This document shows positions 15,897 to 53,429 of a stretch of DNA of 64,000 nt, piece after piece. The stretch lies in the NCBI RefSeq assembly GCF_055900595.2, contig NZ_CM148325.1; one strand, 5' to 3'. Every line of letters begins with the position of its first letter. Positions within the stretch are counted from its first letter, which is position 1. The notes beneath the pieces were generated by a model, which had not been told where the DNA came from, did not search any database, and saw only the letters and a program-made list of their open reading frames with translations. A program made the translations under genes and the position numbers.

Positions 15897-16066
15897 AATG
15901 GCTCACTCAAGCTTGCTCACGATTGATTCCAGTAACAAACCGTATTGTGTAATTATTTCTATAGCAGGTCGCTATATAGGCTTGTATATATCGAATAATT
16001 TGAAAATCAAAGAGATATGTAGATTTTCACTCGAAAGTAGTATTACGTGTAAGTGAGGAGTAATTA

Positions 16067-16080
16067 TTGTTCGGTATCAA
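16067..16080 (-). promoter_or_regulatory. FNR-box-like site upstream of dmsA (TTGATACCGAACAA on the minus strand)
   Basis: matches TTGAT-N4-ATCAA consensus with one mismatch; lies 12 bp from the prophage att core. Confidence 0.5.
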
Positions 16081-16091
16081 AGGGAGACAAA

Positions 16092-16106
16092 AAAAGCGCC
16101 CGCAGG
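16092..16106. repeat. att core copy, integrase-proximal
   Basis: exact 15-mer shared with 53386..53400. Confidence 0.8.
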
Positions 16107-16192
16107 AGATTTAACGGTACTTACTCCTCTTGCTGATTTCCTTATTTTTCAATAAGTAAACAAAAACAAGGGGAGCAAATTATCACAAATAA

Positions 16193-17197
16193 TTACTGGT
16201 CGATGGACAGTTTATGGACACTTTCAGCCAGCGGATTAAAGCTGATCGCATCCTGTAAAAAGTCCGGTGAAAAATGCGCATACGTCATCGTTTGCTGAAT
16301 CGTGGCGTGACCCAGGATCCTCTGCAACGTGACGATGTTCCCGCCGTTCATCATGAAATGCGTGGCGAACGTGTGCCGCATGACATGCGTGGCCTGCCCT
16401 TTGGGTAAGTCGGGCTTCACCTCCTGAAGGATCTCCCTGAAACTGAGATAATCAACCTGATATAACAGGCCGGTCCGGCGGGTTTTAATTAACGGCACAA
16501 CGGAATCAGCTACAGGAACCGAGCGCGATTTCCCGTTCTTTGTGTTAAAGAACGTCACCCTGTTACCCACGATGTGTTCCCCGCGAAGCGTTGACGCCTC
16601 TTTCCATCTGGCCCCGGTCGAAAGGCACAGAATGGCAATGCGTCGTGCATCACCCTCAAGCCGTTTCAGAAGGCGATCAATCTCGTCATCTGAAAGAAAG
16701 GCCATTTCTGTATTCTGAACCTTGAGTTTACGTATTCCGCGCACAGGGTTTTCGTTATGATAAACCTCCGCGTCAATTAACAACGAAAACATCGCAGATA
16801 AGGCGCACAGGTCGCGATTGATACTGGACGGCATCAGTCCCGCCTGCAACTTATCCGAGCGATACTCAATCACGAATTTTCGTGTCATCTGGCTGGCGCG
16901 CGGGTCCCCCATTTCACGTATCACCTTCTCCAGTCTGGTTCTGTAGGTATCACCATATGCCTGATTACGACCATCAAGCATCCACCACACCTCAATCAGT
17001 TCTGATAACCGCCGTTGATCGGCGGGCCTTGCCTGCCACGGGTTATTGTGGAAATTCTGAAGAACGTATCTTTCGAATTCCTGCGCCTTTGATTTCAGGG
17101 TGAAAATCTTACGAATCCGCCTTCCTCCCGCCCCCTGAGGCCTTACATCAACCTGATAACGTCCGTCTTTGAGTTGCTTAATCGACATGATCAGCAC
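16193..17197 (-). CDS. int: P2-family tyrosine integrase
   Basis: P2 Int-like sequence (KQLKDGRYQVDVRP..., ILCLSTGARW..., catalytic region HVMRHTFATHFMMNGGNIVTLQRILGH...YAHF); true start may be the MSIKQL Met. Confidence 0.9.
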   Translation of the reverse strand: MLIMSIKQLKDGRYQVDVRPQGAGGRRIRKIFTLKSKAQEFERYVLQNFHNNPWQARPADQRRLSELIEVWWMLDGRNQAYGDTYRTRLEKVIREMGDPRASQMTRKFVIEYRSDKLQAGLMPSSINRDLCALSAMFSLLIDAEVYHNENPVRGIRKLKVQNTEMAFLSDDEIDRLLKRLEGDARRIAILCLSTGARWKEASTLRGEHIVGNRVTFFNTKNGKSRSVPVADSVVPLIKTRRTGLLYQVDYLSFREILQEVKPDLPKGQATHVMRHTFATHFMMNGGNIVTLQRILGHATIQQTMTYAHFSPDFLQDAISFNPLAESVHKLSIDQ

Positions 17198-21547: not shown

Positions 21548-21638
21548 GTAACCACTATGCACACACAAAAAAACCGCTTGCCATGCCGCAATCAGTCAGG
21601 TTACATTTCCGCTGCACCTCATAAAACGGGTGCCGGGA

Positions 21639-21833
21639 TTGCAACCCCCGCTGACAACTACAGCGCACAACCGCGCCAGCGGTTTTTTTGTGCGTACCGT
21701 ATCGCCACGTCTTTTTCGCGCCAGAATTATGGCGGGGCGTATGGGGCCGACTTCGGTCGGGCCGGTTTCTGTAGTTGCCGGTGGTTGCAACCCTGTACGT
21801 CTCGCCACCCAGAATTGCAACCTCTGGATGGTG
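21639..21833. repeat. TTGCAAC direct repeats (4 copies; three at ~30-bp spacing upstream of the 21868 gene)
   Basis: copies at 21639, 21766, 21796, 21827 in a ~320-bp noncoding stretch. Confidence 0.6.
21669..21690 (+). terminator. hairpin plus T-run (ACCGCGCCAGCGGTTTTTTT)
   Basis: GC stem followed by seven T. Confidence 0.45.
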
Positions 21834-46002: not shown

Positions 46003-46365
46003 TCAGCCTGCCGTCGCCGCCCCACTCTTCCCGCCAGAGTCCTGACCGGCCAAAAAATTAACCGCCACCCCGCACAGCTGAATAAAATCAGCGGACCCCA
46101 TGCGCTTAAGCAGAACCTCGTCCAGTCGCGGCGAAGTGACGCGCGGGAGTAACTCAAACATCGCGTCCGTTTTCATGTTCAGCACGTCAAGCAGTGACAG
46201 CCCGCGCAGTGAACCGGCCTGCTGTACAGCAGGCGTGATTTCCACATACGTGATTTTTTTGTTACCGAGCACAAGGGGCGTTTTCAGCGTCACGCCGCGC
46301 TCACTGGTCACGTCCGCCGCATCAGCACCGTCAGTAACAGGGGCAACAACCGGATTTTCTTTCAT
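46003..46365 (-). CDS. E: tail assembly chaperone E (E' produced by -1 frameshift, extending to 45839)
   Basis: position between FII and T; slippery TTTTTTG near 3' end; -1 frame stays open until overlapping the T start. Confidence 0.75.
   Translation of the reverse strand: MKENPVVAPVTDGADAADVTSERGVTLKTPLVLGNKKITYVEITPAVQQAGSLRGLSLLDVLNMKTDAMFELLPRVTSPRLDEVLLKRMGSADFIQLCGVAVNFLAGQDSGGKSGAATAG
46051..46057 (-). other. programmed -1 ribosomal frameshift slippery heptamer TTTTTTG (E/E')
   Basis: heptamer 14 codons before the E stop; -1 frame open for about 70 codons. Confidence 0.65.
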
Positions 46366-49420: not shown

Positions 49421-49672
49421 ATGTTCCGTTGTCCCCTATGCGGTGCATCCGCACGTATCCGCACCAGTCGCAATGAAAATGATTCAGGCACAGTTCGCCT
49501 GAAGTACTACCAGTGCAATAACCTCGAATGCGGGATCGGCTTTACCACACTGGAGGGTTTTAACAAATTCACATCAAAACGCGCCCCGTCGCCGCAGGGT
49601 ACAGAGCGGATACCGTGGGAAGATTTTCCGGGATCTCACAGGGGGAATACTCAGATTAATCTTGATATTTAA
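49421..49672 (+). CDS. ogr: Ogr/Delta-family zinc-finger late transcription activator
   Basis: 83 aa; CPLC...C..NLEC zinc-binding arrangement like P2 Ogr. Confidence 0.85.
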   Translation: MFRCPLCGASARIRTSRNENDSGTVRLKYYQCNNLECGIGFTTLEGFNKFTSKRAPSPQGTERIPWEDFPGSHRGNTQINLDI

Positions 49673-49784
49673 GAACAATAATCAGGTTGAGAGGACATCA
49701 TAAGGCAAGTAGATTAACGGCAGATACTTTCCCGCAACCACGGGCAAGTATTTAATTATCCATGATGAAATATGACCTAAATTG

Positions 49785-49817
49785 TTTTTTGCCCGCCGGA
49801 AAGCGGGCATTTTTTTA
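49785..49817 (+). terminator. terminator hairpin copy 1 (GCCCGCCGGAAAGCGGGC plus T-run)
   Basis: first of nine near-identical hairpins in 49.8-53.0 kb. Confidence 0.7.
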
Positions 49818-50030
49818 TTCTTTTGTGGTTATGGGGTCATCAGGAACCACGTGCAGATTATATTTTTGTTTTTTTGGCGTTCCTCCGGCAGCAACGAGTT
49901 CATCAATAAGACACTGACACGCCTGAACATCCCGGGCATGTCTTAGTTTCACCTTTATTGATTTAACCTTATCCTCACCGGAGGAGAAATGCAGTTCAAT
50001 CTCAATATCGTTTCTTCGGAACAATCTCAT
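49815..50030 (-). CDS. 71-aa hypothetical protein, intact copy of a repeated gene
   Basis: MRLFRRNDIEIELHFSSGEDKVKSIKVKLRHARDVQACQCLIDELVAAGGTPKKQKYNLHVVPDDPITTKE; decayed paralogues at 51101..51199 and 51784..51855. Confidence 0.55.
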   Translation of the reverse strand: MRLFRRNDIEIELHFSSGEDKVKSIKVKLRHARDVQACQCLIDELVAAGGTPKKQKYNLHVVPDDPITTKE

Positions 50031-50123
50031 ACGCCCCCTGAATATATCAGAAATACTAGTATCGAAAAATGAGAAAACAGTTAGACAGGAGAAACATATT
50101 AACACAAATCATTTATACCTATA

Positions 50124-50141
50124 GATGAAATTATAATTTCA
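50124..50141. promoter_or_regulatory. perfect 18-bp palindrome ATGAAATTATAATTTCAT with embedded TATAAT
   Basis: about 95 bp upstream of the 71-aa gene; related imperfect palindromes upstream of the decayed copies. Confidence 0.55.
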
Positions 50142-50250
50142 TTCATGAATATGATAGATAACTATATTGTGAACAAAATGAAAAATGGCTAAATTAAAAA
50201 TGGGCATGGAGGAATGCCCGGTTATCAATATAATGTGACGTAGATCATTG

Positions 50251-50281
50251 TTTTGCCCGCCGGAGAGCGGGCATTTTTTTT
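50251..50281 (+). terminator. terminator hairpin copy 2
   Basis: GCCCGCCGGAGAGCGGGC plus T7. Confidence 0.7.
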
Positions 50282-50450
50282 GCGCCTGCCATCGAGGCGC
50301 CTTCCCTGGCGCACACAAAGCAGCCCTGATTTTCCATGAAAACTTCAGGGTTGAGCTGCGGGCACAAAGTGAGTAGATTAGCTACGGGTACCTCCCCCTG
50401 ACAACAGGAAGGGTGTCCATTATCCATGATATACAAACGAAAAGTCTTGT
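50282..50450 (+). ncRNA. repeated ~170-nt structured module S1 (candidate small RNA)
   Basis: bounded by terminator hairpins; internal hairpins (GCGCC..GGCGC, CCCTGA..TCAGGG, CCTTCC..GGAAGG); four paralogous copies. Confidence 0.35.
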
Positions 50451-50481
50451 TTTTTGCCCGCCGAAGCGCGGGCATTTTTTT
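50451..50481 (+). terminator. terminator hairpin copy 3
   Basis: GCCCGCCGAAGCGCGGGC plus T-run. Confidence 0.7.
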
Positions 50482-50607
50482 ATGCATCAGACAAGATACA
50501 GCCCACCCCAACTGACACCTGAAATATTGCCGCAACAAAAAGAAACAGTTAAATTACGCGCGGGTGCCTTTCGGCTGATGGCCGGAGGGAAAACCTGAAG
50601 GCCGGAT

Positions 50608-50841
50608 GTGGAAAGGCCCCGGAAAACATTTCTGTTTAACCGAGGCCCTAACCGCATTACCTTGACAAGTGAAAGGTTAGCGCCTCTCCGGAAAAGGAGC
50701 AAGTGCTATGTCGCAAAAATCGCTTACGGCCATCACGTTCTGCGTGACGGCAATCCTCATCATCTGGATATTGCACGGTTCGCTGTGCGAAATACGGATG
50801 AGCTTCTGGGGAGCGGAGTTTGCGGCGTTCTTACAATGTAA
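50608..50841 (+). CDS. mok-like overlapping reading frame of hok locus
   Basis: 77-aa ORF starting upstream of and overlapping the hok-like frame, as in hok/mok/sok loci. Confidence 0.5.
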   Translation: MERPRKTFLFNRGPNRITLTSERLAPLRKRSKCYVAKIAYGHHVLRDGNPHHLDIARFAVRNTDELLGSGVCGVLTM

Positions 50842-50848
50842 GAAGTAA
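50708..50848 (+). CDS. hok: Hok/Gef-family type I toxin (intact)
   Basis: 46 aa MSQKSLTAITFCVTAILIIWILHGSLCEIRMSFWGAEFAAFLQCKK; single TM plus conserved SLCEIR motif; 5' GGGTGCCT (50552) complementary to 3' AGGCACCC (50906). Confidence 0.8.
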   Translation: MSQKSLTAITFCVTAILIIWILHGSLCEIRMSFWGAEFAAFLQCKK

Positions 50849-50934
50849 GGAAACCGCGACGGGGGAGCAATCCCCCGTCAATCGGTTGCCAGGGTAAGGT
50901 CGATAAGGCACCCTATCTCACAGACATGAACAAC

Positions 50935-50970
50935 AAACCCGCAGCATAAAAACTGCGGGTTTTCTTTTTG
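50935..50970 (+). terminator. rho-independent terminator of hok transcript
   Basis: AACCCGCAG-CATAAAAA-CTGCGGGTT followed by TTCTTTTT. Confidence 0.7.
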
Positions 50971-51100
50971 GTGTCCTCACCGACTTGAAACAGTGATCAG
51001 ACTATAAGACAAAGCCCGCAATGTTGCGGGCTTACTCTACCTCTCGAAAATGTGGTCACTGCGTGGACATACGCTGATACAAATCCTTTATATCAATAAA

Positions 51101-51199
51101 TTAAATCTTTGTTTTTTTCATCAACAATGATTTAACCTTATCCTCACCGGAGGAGAAATGCAGTTCAATCTCAATATCGTTTCTGTGGAACAGCCTCAT
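51101..51199 (-). pseudogene. truncated paralogue of the 71-aa gene
   Basis: MRLFHRNDIEIELHFSSGEDKVKS then divergent and stop after 32 codons; retains AGGAGG RBS. Confidence 0.55.
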
Positions 51200-51414
51200 A
51201 AGACAACCTCCTGAATTCATCAGAAACACAGTCAACTGAAAACCAGAAAGCAGACAAACAGTGGACACACATTAATACAAATCATTTATACCTATAGATG
51301 AAATTGCAGTTTCATCTATAACATGACAGGTAACAATATTGTGAAAAAACTCAAAACTCGTTAGATTAAAGACGGACAGAGCAATGCTACTTTATCAATA
51401 ACATGTAACCTGTA

Positions 51415-51445
51415 CTTCCTTATTTTGCCCGCCGAAGCACGGGCA
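51415..51445 (+). terminator. terminator hairpin copy 4
   Basis: GCCCGCCGAAGCACGGGC plus T-run. Confidence 0.7.
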
Positions 51446-51621
51446 TTTTTTTTGCGCCTGCCATCGAGGCGCCTTCCCTGGCGCACACAAAGCAGCCCTG
51501 ATTTTCCATGAAAACTTCAGGGTTGAGCCAAAAGCACAAAGACAGTAGATTAACCACGGGTGCCTTCCACCTGACAACAGGAAGGGTGTCCAGTATCAAT
51601 GACAGACAACTCACATTGCTG
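51446..51621 (+). ncRNA. structured module S2
   Basis: paralogue of S1. Confidence 0.35.
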
Positions 51622-51651
51622 TTTTGCCCGCCGGAAAGCGGGCATTTTTTT
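51622..51651 (+). terminator. terminator hairpin copy 5
   Basis: GCCCGCCGGAAAGCGGGC plus T-run. Confidence 0.7.
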
Positions 51652-51783
51652 ATTCTTTTGTGGTTATTGGGTCATCAGGAACAACATGCAGATTATGCTT
51701 TGATTTTTTTGGTGTTATTACAGCAGCAACGAGTTTATTAATAAGACACTGACATGCCTGAACATCCCTGACATATCATAATT

Positions 51784-51855
51784 TCACTTTATTTTTTTAG
51801 CTTGTCCTTTCTGGAGCAGAAATATCTCAACATCGTTTCTGTGGAACAACCTCAT
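51784..51855 (-). pseudogene. decayed paralogue of the 71-aa gene
   Basis: MRLFHRNDVEIF then frameshift; 3' region still alignable to the intact copy. Confidence 0.5.
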
Positions 51856-52071
51856 TTGCCCCTGAATGTATCATAAATATCAGCATCGGAAAACCAACAG
51901 CAATACAGAAGAAACATGTTAATGCAAATCACTTATACCTATAGATGAAATTACAGTTTTGTTCATAAATATGATAAGTAACTATATTGTGAATAAAATG
52001 AAAACTAGCTAAATTAAACGTGGGCATGGTGGAATGCCTCGTAATCAATAATACATGATCCGTACTTCCTT

Positions 52072-52102
52072 GTTTTGCCCGCCGGAAAGCGGGCATTTTT
52101 TT
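52072..52102 (+). terminator. terminator hairpin copy 6
   Basis: same hairpin. Confidence 0.7.
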
Positions 52103-52270
52103 GGCGGTTACCATCGCCTCACCTTCCTGGTTCACATGAAGCAACCCTGATTTTCCATGAAAACTTCAGGGTTGAGACAAAAGCACAAAGACAGTAGATT
52201 AACCACGGGTACCTTCCACCTGACAACAGGAAGGCTGTCCAGTATCAATGACAGACAACTCACATTGCTG
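52103..52270 (+). ncRNA. structured module S3
   Basis: paralogue of S1/S2. Confidence 0.35.
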
Positions 52271-52299
52271 TTTTGCCCGCCGGAAAGCGGGCTTTTTTT
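52271..52299 (+). terminator. terminator hairpin copy 7
   Basis: same hairpin, T-run after GGGC. Confidence 0.7.
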
Positions 52300-52471
52300 G
52301 GCAGTTATCATAGCCGCACCTTCCTGGCACATATGAAGCAACCCTGATTTTCCATGAAAACTTCAGGGTTGAGACAAAAGCACAAAAACAGTAGATTAAC
52401 CACGGGTGCCTGCCACCTGACAACAGGAAGGGGTGTCCATTATCCATGATATACAAACGAAAAGTCTTGTC
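52300..52471 (+). ncRNA. structured module S4
   Basis: paralogue, 3' end like S1. Confidence 0.35.
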
Positions 52472-52501
52472 TTTTGCCCGCCAAAGCGCGGGCATTTTTT
52501 T
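52472..52501 (+). terminator. terminator hairpin copy 8
   Basis: GCCCGCCAAAGCGCGGGC plus T-run. Confidence 0.7.
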
Positions 52502-52712
52502 ATGCATCAGACAAGATACAGCCCACCCCAACTAACACCTGAAATATTGCCGCAACAAAAAGAAACGGGTGCCTTTCGGCTGATGGCCGGAGGGAAAACC
52601 TGAAGACCGGATGTGGAAAGGCCCCGGAAAACATCTGTGTTTAACCGAGGCCTGACCCTTCCTACCGTGACAAGTGGAAGGTTAGCGCCTCTTTGTAAAA
52701 GGAGCAAGCGCT

Positions 52713-52853
52713 ATACCGCAAAAAACGATTATTGTTGGCATTTTATGCCTGACAATAACCCTGGTCATCTGGATGGTCCACGATTCGTTATGTGAATTCA
52801 GCTTTGATATCTGAGGAGCGCGTTTTGCGGCGTTCTTGCAGTGTAAACCGTAA
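52713..52853 (+). pseudogene. hok-like toxin pseudogene (second copy)
   Basis: paralogous to 50708..50848 but start codon is ATA and an in-frame TGA replaces the Trp codon; mok-like frame 52613..52795 retained. Confidence 0.7.
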
Positions 52854-52948
52854 GAAACCGCAGCGGGGGAGAAATTCCCCGCTATCCGGTTGTTGGGGTG
52901 GGCCGATATGGCGCCCTTTCCCTGTAGAGACAAAACAAAAAACCAGAT

Positions 52949-53003: not shown

Positions 53004-53231
53004 TCAGAGGCGCGTAAGCCACCCGGCGTTAACATCCTGCCTGTCAACCCTGGCCGCAGAGTCTGAACGGCAGGTACCGGAAGGAGTACCAAAAACATCC
53101 CTGACAAGTTCCGCCACCTTCCCGATATCATCAGGTGTCACATTCCTCACCTCGGCCGTGATCCGTGGCGTACCATCATCGTTAACAAGAGTGGCTTTAA
53201 AGCTGGTGCGAAGGGAAAACAACATCAACAT
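53004..53231 (-). CDS. hypothetical small protein at prophage end (75 aa)
   Basis: RBS AGGGAGGGG upstream of ATG; last ORF inside the att boundary. Confidence 0.4.
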   Translation of the reverse strand: MLMLFSLRTSFKATLVNDDGTPRITAEVRNVTPDDIGKVAELVRDVFGTPSGTCRSDSAARVDRQDVNAGWLTRL

Positions 53232-53385
53232 CCCCTCCCTTTGGTTCGTTGCACTGACGGCACGACACCATCAGGAAAAAGAAAAGCCCACAACGTCAGT
53301 ATTGTGGACTTTTTTCTTCAAAGATGGACATTATCTGGACACATGAAAATAAAATCCATTTATTTTCATATAGTTAAGTACCATG

Positions 53386-53400
53386 CAAAAGCGCCCGCAG
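53386..53400. repeat. att core copy, serS-proximal (forms the serS terminator hairpin)
   Basis: AAAAGCGCCCGCAGG identical to 16092..16106; continues as GCGCTTTTT. Confidence 0.8.
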
Positions 53401-53429
53401 GCGCTTTTTAGATTCAGAAAAATTGGGTA

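Follow-up and report, generated by a model that had tools for sequence, protein, structure and literature searches.

A probable 5'-truncated PHROG 14142 gene and an allele-specific palindrome between ogr and attR of a P2-like prophage

A 71-aa ORF near one end of a P2-like prophage in E. coli is, on sequence comparison, a 5'-truncated, domain-only member of the PHROG 14142 family and the remnant of a real gene, and the perfect palindrome upstream of it is best read as an allele-specific feature where a relic att arm meets an sRNA-like gene. The reading that we prefer, with somewhat better than even confidence, therefore combines a truncated PHROG 14142 gene with an incidental palindrome located where the relic att arm meets the upstream region of that sRNA-like gene, here called T2. 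As first proposed, the ORF and palindrome would have formed a compact autoregulated prophage switch; the evidence reduces this to a truncated, recurrent gene of P2-like prophages. All coordinates below refer to the window, which is the whole 64-kb stretch of E. coli DNA that was analysed. The prophage and the interval that contains the ORF are delimited by the following features:

~16095-16110, attL, inside STnc130 (15987-16121), with a core identical to the attR core
~16194-17189, int
49421..49672, plus strand, ogr/Delta-like late activator gene (ORF list and RefSeq annotation of identical DNA)
50562..50848, plus strand, hok/sok type I toxin-antitoxin locus with an intact 46-aa Hok
53320..53400, apparently functional attR, consisting of a P arm (ATGGACAttatCTGGACA and an A/T element) and the core AAAAGCGCCCGCAGG

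The prophage lies between dmsA and serS and is integrated in the STnc130 sRNA gene. Its core AAAAGCGCCCGCAGG is the 3' end of STnc130 and occurs at ~16096 and 53387, with the displaced 3' end at 53387 directly preceding serS. P2-type Int arm repeat pairs are present on both sides of the core (ATGGACAttatCTGGACA at 53326-53343, GATGGACAgtttATGGACA at 16203-16221) and agree with the published consensus for P2-type arm sites, tgTGGaCa (PMC3448106); the active P arm covers 53320-53385. sRNA loci are documented as sites of phage attachment, e.g. sdsR (PMC3333887), and the integration of this prophage lineage into STnc130 is of wider interest. The last conserved P2 gene is ogr, and the interval of ~3.7 kb from ogr to the true P arm is rich in repeats: it contains nine terminator copies, three copies of the 71-aa gene, two hok/sok loci (one of them intact) and five copies of a 44-nt repeat, D9. 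The match to sok is below the gathering score (46.2 bits vs 59), and hok/sok is found directly after ogr in related P2-like phages.

The three copies of the 71-aa gene are all on the minus strand, and the first of these is intact:

49815..50030, minus strand, 71-aa ORF with ATG start (coordinates include the stop codon)
50034..50039, minus strand, Shine-Dalgarno-like AGGGGG, 3-4 nt upstream of the ATG
51101..51199, minus strand, ORF copy 2, 32 codons with an internal deletion
~51650-51855, minus strand, ORF copy 3, decayed, with an 8-nt deletion and a frameshift

The intact ORF is present exactly where the original prediction had placed it, both in the ORF list and in RefSeq, which calls it WP_001236182.1 ('hypothetical protein'), and it is convergent with ogr. 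Residues 1-56 match positions 72-127 of the 128-position profile of PHROG 14142 (E 4.9e-12), an uncharacterised ~128-aa family of enterobacterial P2-like prophages, and two full-length relatives match the whole profile at 1.6e-67 (P0009) and 1.3e-41 (P0011). An exhaustive HMMER search of 1.84 billion representatives likewise returned relatives of 128 and 133 aa, aligned at their residues 72-124. Scans of genomes and viral collections gave 21 family loci, of which the complete ones mostly encode ~128-aa proteins; the diverged loci from outside E. coli are on P2-like prophage contigs and in a Citrobacter and a Sodalis genome. Conservation of the ORF in related prophages, the lack of which would have told against the original prediction, is borne out by this family. 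The family-invariant residues M72, D79, E81, E83, L100, R101 and C109 are all present in the 71-aa protein, and besides Met72 the invariant motif reads N-D-x-E-x-E ... K-L-R ... C-x-x-L. This allows WP_001236182.1 to be linked to PHROG 14142, which is useful for annotation, if unsurprising.

The start codon of the ORF corresponds to the invariant Met72 of PHROG 14142, so that the ORF lacks the N-terminal 71 family residues, and with these the full-length ~128-aa architecture with its ~71-aa N-terminal domain. When the upstream DNA was compared for 15 family genes, the homology of the ORF to the family was found to end ~12 nt upstream of the Met codon, which together with the position of the start identifies the ORF as a 5'-truncated, domain-only member on sequence grounds. 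In the full-length genes, the AGGGGG motif of the short gene has its homologue in the GCAGGGG (Ala-Gly) codons located just before Met72. The truncated gene would thus still be translatable, with only the C-terminal, predicted beta-beta-alpha domain left, and translation would start from what had been the internal Met72 with the preceding GGGG-rich codons serving as ribosome binding site. Met72 was also considered as a conserved internal start in the full-length genes and rejected, as a properly spaced Shine-Dalgarno-like motif is found only in close relatives and is ~14 nt from Met72 in divergent members. A 75-aa ORF beside the true attR (53004-53231) was rejected as a divergent family member as well (hhalign probability 0.2%). 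With regard to genomic position, the family relatives are the last prophage gene, with only a hairpin and the attR P arm before host DNA; in two loci (L006 and L007) the family gene is directly convergent with ogr, and in another (L004) tail-fibre genes, not ogr, are found beyond it. The 71-aa ORF shares this niche, being located after ogr and in the same orientation, and the P arm that adjoins it is a relic.

The loss of the N-terminal 71 family residues also fits a reading of the ORF as a dead pseudogene remnant, with no function left anywhere in 50031-50142, which we regard as possible, if doubtful. It is in line with the existence of 57-aa and 71-aa alleles, which arise through a poly-A/T tract (with R30T in addition in the L100 allele), with the decay of two of the three copies in the window, and with the limited distribution of the cassette, which only 30 of the 5426 complete E. 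coli genomes carry; moreover, tblastn searches with the 71-aa protein and a 128-aa relative did not find the family in 50,697 deposited phage genomes. It does not sit easily with the retention of the invariant residues of the C-terminal domain, the Met codon and the Shine-Dalgarno-like motif, nor with domain-only versions found elsewhere, i.e. the 57-aa P0010 and the Sodalis locus L012, which has an in-frame stop before the domain.

The original prediction had left the protein unrecognised and had proposed profile and structure searches, of which the former gave PHROG 14142 and the latter gave no structural match. There was no match to the 71-aa protein in Pfam (with either the single sequence or the family alignment), NCBIfam or PADLOC, no meaningful match with a sequence profile in the PDB (the top match, a ferritin at E 0.07, is noise), and no meaningful Foldseek match in the PDB (best E 0.6); no HTH, RHH or other DNA-binding family was matched in Pfam, NCBIfam, PHROG or PDB. 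AF2 predicted a beta-beta-alpha core for the 71-aa protein at a low confidence that supports no fold claim (pLDDT 60, core 60-73), and the model of a full-length family protein was poor (pLDDT 50). Residues 53-71 form a lineage-specific tail in the alignment and are predicted by AF2 to be disordered. Nothing points to DNA binding by the 71-aa protein, and the AF2 models are too weak to exclude a DNA-binding fold. In our preferred reading the protein would be a small accessory protein expressed in the lysogen, which may act via protein contacts and not through DNA binding.

A palindrome or palindrome-like sequence is found upstream of each of the three ORF copies:

50125..50142, perfect 18-bp palindrome ATGAAATTATAATTTCAT, 94 bp upstream of the ATG
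51298-51315, imperfect palindrome ATGAAATTGCAGTTTCAT, upstream of ORF copy 2
51945-51962, degenerate palindrome ATGAAATTACAGTTTTGT, upstream of ORF copy 3

The perfect palindrome with TATAAT has the sequence originally described, while its coordinates are 50125-50142 and not 50124-50141, and the distance to the ORF start of about 95 bp agrees with the 94 bp measured here. The TATAAT is at 50132-50137 and is the sole consensus -10 box of the interval. The related imperfect palindromes that had been reported upstream of both decayed copies were found as ATGAAATTGCAGTTTCAT and ATGAAATTACAGTTTTGT, and the former is part of a 28-bp near-palindrome, TATAGATGAAAT-TGCA-GTTTCATCTATA, at 51293-51320. 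That degraded palindromes accompany degraded ORFs is compatible with the joint decay of a functional pair, and counts against our preferred reading. First-order Markov simulations of the window gave an expectation of 0.28 perfect palindromes with arms of at least 9 bp per 64 kb, with 26% of the simulated windows containing at least one, and of 0.016 for the 3.6-kb ogr-attR region alone, compared to two observed in the window (the second is at 46217-46234); by this measure the palindrome is unusual, but not extraordinary. Its own sequence or a near match occurs in the window only at 50125 and 51298, and a search of the left end of the prophage and of other places in E. coli genomes found no further copy. 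In IMG/VR, the exact palindrome and the adjacent 19-mer were found only in the same E. coli lineage and in unrelated AT-rich phages.

The three copies of the window (c1, c2 and c3) were aligned with the loci L010 and L013-L015, and neither the dyad nor the TATAAT is conserved in this alignment. In gene orientation, the promoter-proximal half of the palindrome together with what comes after it (ATTTCATCTATAGGTATAAATGATTTG) is conserved in all aligned copies and alleles, whereas the distal half varies between ATGAAATTAT, ATGAAACTGC and ACAAAACTGT, and the position of the TATAAT of copy 1 is taken by TGCAAT or TGTAAT in the paralogues (ATTGCA/ATTACA on the plus strand). One locus (L015) has an intact 71-codon gene preceded by the imperfect, TATAAT-less ATGAAACTGCAATTTCAT. 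Going by these alignments, the perfect symmetry and the TATAAT are an allele-specific state and not a conserved operator. Upstream of the full-length relatives, where the hairpin and P arm are located, no comparable dyad was seen on inspection. The half-sites of the palindrome were also considered as C/Cox-type operators, and this was rejected as they do not recur in the immunity region of the prophage.

To the right of the palindrome, and also between ogr and the ORF, are members of a set of eight sRNA-like units on the plus strand, named T1-T8, of which those nearest to the ORF are:

49687..49817, plus strand, T1, sRNA-like, promoter TTGAGA-17-TAGATT (49687-49715)
50167..50281, plus strand, T2, sRNA-like, type B, promoter TTGTGA-17-TAAATT (50167-50195), predicted start at ~50203
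50252-50281, plus strand, terminator copy 2, one of nine copies
50351..50482, plus strand, T3, sRNA-like, type A, preceded by the 27-bp imperfect palindrome CCCTGATTTTCCATGAAAACTTCAGGG

The predicted T1 RNA of ~96 nt (~49722-49817) has a 5' hairpin and terminator copy 1 (fold z -3.3), with the terminator abutting or overlapping the stop codon of the 71-aa ORF. T2 combines terminator copy 2 with a 5' hairpin and the single-stranded motif UUAUCAAUA, and its promoter, stable 5' structure and Rho-independent terminator with U tail are all computational predictions. It aligns over its whole length with the seven other units, and all eight (8/8) have TTGAGA or TTGTGA and TAGATT or TAAATT separated by exactly 17 bp, with an identity across the units of 0.84 and 0.93 for the hexamers versus 0.50 for the spacers and upstream DNA. 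Each unit has a predicted RNA of ~80-100 nt with a 5' hairpin that differs in sequence, a U-rich stretch, the common terminator and a conserved single-stranded motif, UAUC(A/C)AU(G/A)A. The T2 promoter scores 7.3, which makes it the top plus-strand candidate in the interval albeit not above the chance level of 8.3, and it was assigned because its register is conserved among the paralogous units. It is located ~25 bp to the right of the palindrome, and the predicted T2 start ~60 bp to the right. The original prediction had a short plus-strand RNA running from the palindrome to terminator 2; such a unit is plausible and a short RNA ending at terminator 2 probably exists, but it would be transcribed from its own conserved promoter at 50167-50195 and not from the palindrome.

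None of the units matched an Rfam family at gathering score, with only weak, terminator-driven matches obtained; the best match to AgvB was 23 bits versus a gathering score of 56, and most of this came from the terminator. An IMG/VR scan with the terminator pattern, a covariance model run on IMG/VR-derived loci and a metagenome scan all found the units only in this E. coli lineage, and literature searches for the terminator sequence and for P2-like, ogr and sRNA found nothing. Pairing of the conserved motif with nearby mRNAs was rejected, with no convincing target within the window. A derivation of the units from STnc130 was also rejected at a match of 18/23 (z ~2.5), and has been kept as a lead. 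The array comprises eight tandem sRNA-like genes new to Rfam, would be an unusually dense phage-borne sRNA array if expressed, and is a more interesting by-product of this analysis than the palindrome itself.

Transcription of the 71-aa ORF would have to initiate close by, given one further feature of the T2 region:

50202..50219, minus strand, terminator-like hairpin and T-run, the complement of the T2 5' hairpin

Read on the minus strand (50219-50202), this hairpin would stop read-through from the right, and a promoter for the ORF, if it is expressed, must therefore lie in 50031-50200, where the best -10 box is the TATAAT of the palindrome. This need for a promoter in a region where the palindrome holds the best -10 box counts against our preferred reading, as the palindrome may then have some part in regulation. 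A scan for σ70 consensus promoters found no site using the palindrome on either strand. With a weight matrix, the minus strand gave CTATCA-16-TATAAT (-35 box CTATCA at 50157-50152) with a score of 6.8, compared to a best score of 8.3 +/- 1.3 in shuffled sequence of the same composition, and for the plus strand there was no usable -35 box to go with the -10 box of the palindrome. At most, and with roughly one chance in three, the TATAAT would be the -10 box of a weak minus-strand promoter of the ORF.

The autoregulated or bidirectional promoter of the original prediction found no support here, since the promoter candidates at the palindrome are not above chance, the dyad is not conserved and the protein has no recognisable DNA-binding domain. 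In its explicit form, the palindrome would be an operator overlapping a promoter, at which binding of a dimer of the 71-aa protein leads to repression of its own gene, of the divergent short RNA or of both, and we consider this very unlikely. An operator would be in keeping with the perfect dyad and its TATAAT at 94 bp before the ORF, with the expectation of only 0.016 such palindromes in the 3.6-kb region, with the decay of the dyads where the ORF copies have decayed and with the local promoter required by the minus-strand hairpin; however, both dyad and TATAAT are lost in the paralogues and in L015 with its intact ORF, a plus-strand -35 box is lacking and the minus-strand candidate scores below chance, and the plus-strand unit comes with a promoter of its own, which keeps register with those of seven paralogues. 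The protein, with its predicted beta-beta-alpha core, matched no HTH, RHH or other DNA-binding family, and inspection of the upstream regions of the full-length relatives gave no comparable dyad.

The palindrome could alternatively serve T2 as the site of an activating or repressing host or phage transcription factor, centred ~70 bp upstream of the predicted start of this type-B unit. The element is 23-24 bp from the -35 box in 3/3 type-B units, and the type-A units carry CCCTGATTTTCCATGAAAACTTCAGGG abutting their -35 box, with ATGAAA/TTTC half-sites common to both. We hold this to be quite improbable, as little of the right arm is conserved between the three type-B units and there is no further such site in the immunity region of the prophage or the rest of the window; to our knowledge, and judged by inspection, the palindrome does not match the consensus of Fur, ArgR, CRP or LexA.

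The DNA between the palindrome and the ORF is itself repetitive and contains one of the copies of the D9 repeat, another of which is located at the true attR. The two copies needed here are:

50076..50124, degenerate D9 copy (c1), with GTTAGACA/GAGAAACA, which resemble Int arm sites, and then A/T-rich ACAAATCATTTATACCTATAG
51040..51110, relic P arm 2a, the best-preserved D9 copy, with TGTGGTCActgcGTGGACA and, after it, an A/T element resembling an IHF site

Relic arm 2a aligns with the true attR P arms of L010 and L011 (z ~10) and also with the other repeats (z 11 with 2b, 6.1 with c1 and 6.9 with c3), while 2b and c1 align with a z of 25. On its own, c1 has no significant alignment with the true P arms, which counts against our preferred reading, and its link to these arms runs via 2a and 2b. 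The arm repeats are clear in 2a (TGTGGTCA/GTGGACA), half-clear in 2b (CAGACAA/GTGGACA) and degenerate in the copy adjoining the intact ORF (GTTAGACA/GAGAAACA). Judged by these alignments, the ~110 bp before the ORF belong, in degenerate form, to a repeat of which the best-preserved member is a P arm of P2-type attP. The D9 alignments extend through the left arm of the palindrome, which indicates that this left arm is part of the relic att arm.

The palindrome could also be a core-type site for a tyrosine recombinase, either a relic or with residual activity, as the crossover region of an old attP or attR with the adjacent D9 repeat as its P arm, left behind when P2-like phages integrated serially or recombined. 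An Int-arm/IHF-like relic does directly adjoin it on the expected side, the form in copy 2 is a 12-4-12 near-palindrome (TATAGATGAAAT-TGCA-GTTTCATCTATA), inverted arms with a short spacer being the typical layout of a core site, and the region contains at least two tandem prophage 'right ends'. Still, a core is shared by attL and attR and the palindrome is not; the true cores are G+C-rich terminator hairpins at ~25 nt from the A/T element, whereas the dyad is A/T-rich and closer; neither the left end of the prophage nor any other place in E. coli genomes has a partner copy, the arm repeats of c1 have degenerated, and palindromes of this size with a free spacer are by our estimate not rare by chance. 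We consider a core-type site unlikely, and return to the preferred reading, in which the palindrome would lie at the meeting point of the relic arm and the T2 upstream region and at most supply a -10 box for the ORF.

The sRNA-like units and the 71-aa gene co-occur in the same 30/5426 complete E. coli genomes, and the perfect palindrome is identical in three prophage lineages, i.e. those at serS/STnc130, copA (L010) and ihfA (L100). The gpD sequences of these lineages are 92% identical, compared to 98-100% for the block from ogr through the T2 promoter, which shows that this mosaic block was exchanged recently; that the lineages have the same palindrome is therefore uninformative on selection for the dyad. 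That the c1 palindrome is perfect, holds a consensus -10 box and is identical in three lineages is among the observations that count against the preferred reading. According to that reading the ORF would be part of a mosaic cargo block stretching from ogr to attR, alongside the eight sRNA-like genes and the hok/sok loci. More broadly, the ogr-attP end of P2-like phages presents itself as a hotspot for cargo, in which relic att arms record serial recombination. A more far-reaching proposal is that the cassette is a new regulatory module of eight Hfq-type sRNAs, perhaps derived from or targeting STnc130, and a beta-beta-alpha protein, with the palindrome as a regulator site that coordinates divergent expression of the protein and the type-B sRNA; we rate this as highly doubtful.

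When compared to known systems, the arrangement of a dyad with a -10 box upstream of a small gene resembles the palindromic operators of autoregulated phage and toxin-antitoxin genes, but here the dyad is not conserved in the homologous copies, the protein has no recognisable DNA-binding domain, the dyad is far from the start codon (94 bp) and a convincing -35 box is lacking. There is also a likeness to a P2-type attP P arm, in that a D9 repeat upstream of every ORF copy aligns with the true arms via 2a and the left palindrome arm falls inside the D9 homology; the differences are the degenerate repeats near the intact ORF, the lack of a matching core or partner and the location internal to the prophage. 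With PHROG 14142 the ORF has in common the profile match, the invariant residues of the C-terminal domain, and the niche after ogr, convergent and on the attP/attR side, whereas it represents only the C-terminal half with a lineage-specific tail of 14 residues, lies beside a relic and not an active P arm, and has been triplicated, with two copies decayed.

Similar to the moron-type cargo at the ogr-attP end of other phages (e.g. hok/sok in P88, 500465-2 and PhiR44_2), the insert is a small autonomous unit bounded by terminators and is mosaic between phages that differ elsewhere, although the related public phages have hok directly after ogr, without the 71-aa gene, the palindrome or the sRNA-like units. 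Finally, while T1-T8 differ from Hfq-type prophage sRNAs such as the anti-sRNA AgvB in lacking an Rfam family and in forming eight tandem paralogues, they share with these their own promoter, an RNA of ~80-100 nt, a 5' hairpin, a conserved single-stranded motif, a U-rich stretch and an intrinsic terminator, all of these as computational predictions.

Within the ogr-attR cassette, the plus strand at 49687-52502 carries a tandem array of eight paralogous sRNA-like genes, all preceded by a promoter of the form TTGAGA/TTGTGA-17-TAGATT/TAAATT and all containing a 5' hairpin, the conserved motif UAUC(A/C)AUGA and a terminator common to the eight. None of these units matched an Rfam family, and they turned up in no lineage other than this rare one of E. 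coli P2-like prophages.

Features of the cassette and the prophage right end
about 49722-49817, 50203-50281, 50384-50482 and 51375-51453, plus strand: sRNA-like units 1-4
about 51556-51652, 52023-52103, 52205-52300 and 52402-52502, plus strand: sRNA-like units 5-8
50305-50350, 51477-51522, 52126-52171 and 52323-52368: regions with the 27-bp imperfect palindrome of type-A units
about 49868-49875: poly-T run, equivalent to about 3160 in L100, a related prophage at the ihfA site
50562-50848: hok/sok-type locus 1, with an intact 46-aa Hok
52567-52880: hok/sok-type locus 2, decayed
51040-51110: inner P2-type P arm (2a)
53320-53385: second P2-type P arm, at a spacing of 2.3 kb

The 27-bp imperfect palindrome (CCCTGATTTTCCATGAAAACTTCAGGG) is located ahead of each type-A unit, where it abuts the -35 box, and it has ATGAAA/TTTC half-sites in common with the 18-bp palindrome near the 71-aa ORF. 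Another perfect 18-bp palindrome, GCCTGCTGTACAGCAGGC, is present in the prophage tail-gene region (46217-46234). Type-A units also share an 18/23 stretch (z about 2.5) with the sRNA gene STnc130, a resemblance which could be due to chance or to distant derivation. The 3' end of STnc130 is the integration site of the prophage (15987-16121 and 53387-53410), and its original terminator, displaced by the prophage, adjoins serS.

The 71-aa ORF contains a homopolymer run of either 7 or 8 T (plus strand), on which it depends whether the product has 71 aa or 57 aa (P0003), 57 aa being the length typical of the family. A further allele, in the related locus L043/L015 (IMGVR_UViG_3300008491_000056), combines an intact ORF with an imperfect palindrome; at its right end an IS10-type end (CTGATGAATCCCCTAATGATTTT) breaks the cassette just past the T4-type sRNA-like unit. 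Adjoining the P arm of the active attR, with a hairpin intervening, is a 75-aa ORF (53004-53231, minus strand) in the position held by PHROG 14142 in other prophages; it matched no family, no relation to PHROG 14142 could be detected, and in L100 its place is taken by hicAB.

The inner P arm 2a has no adjacent core, and to its right the entire post-ogr cassette recurs in decayed form. This arrangement suggests either that prophages integrated in tandem or serially, with deletion afterwards, or that the cargo was duplicated. The insert totals 37.3 kb. Two Rfam matches, isrK (60 bits) and C4 antisense RNA (80 bits), are neighbours in the early region of this P2-like prophage (21614-21812, plus strand), just upstream of a gene named 'derepression protein' by RefSeq. 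The Rfam sok matches of hok/sok-type loci 1 and 2 (46 and 43 bits, respectively) are both below the gathering score of 59; in the related phages P88, 500465-2 and PhiR44_2, hok directly follows ogr.
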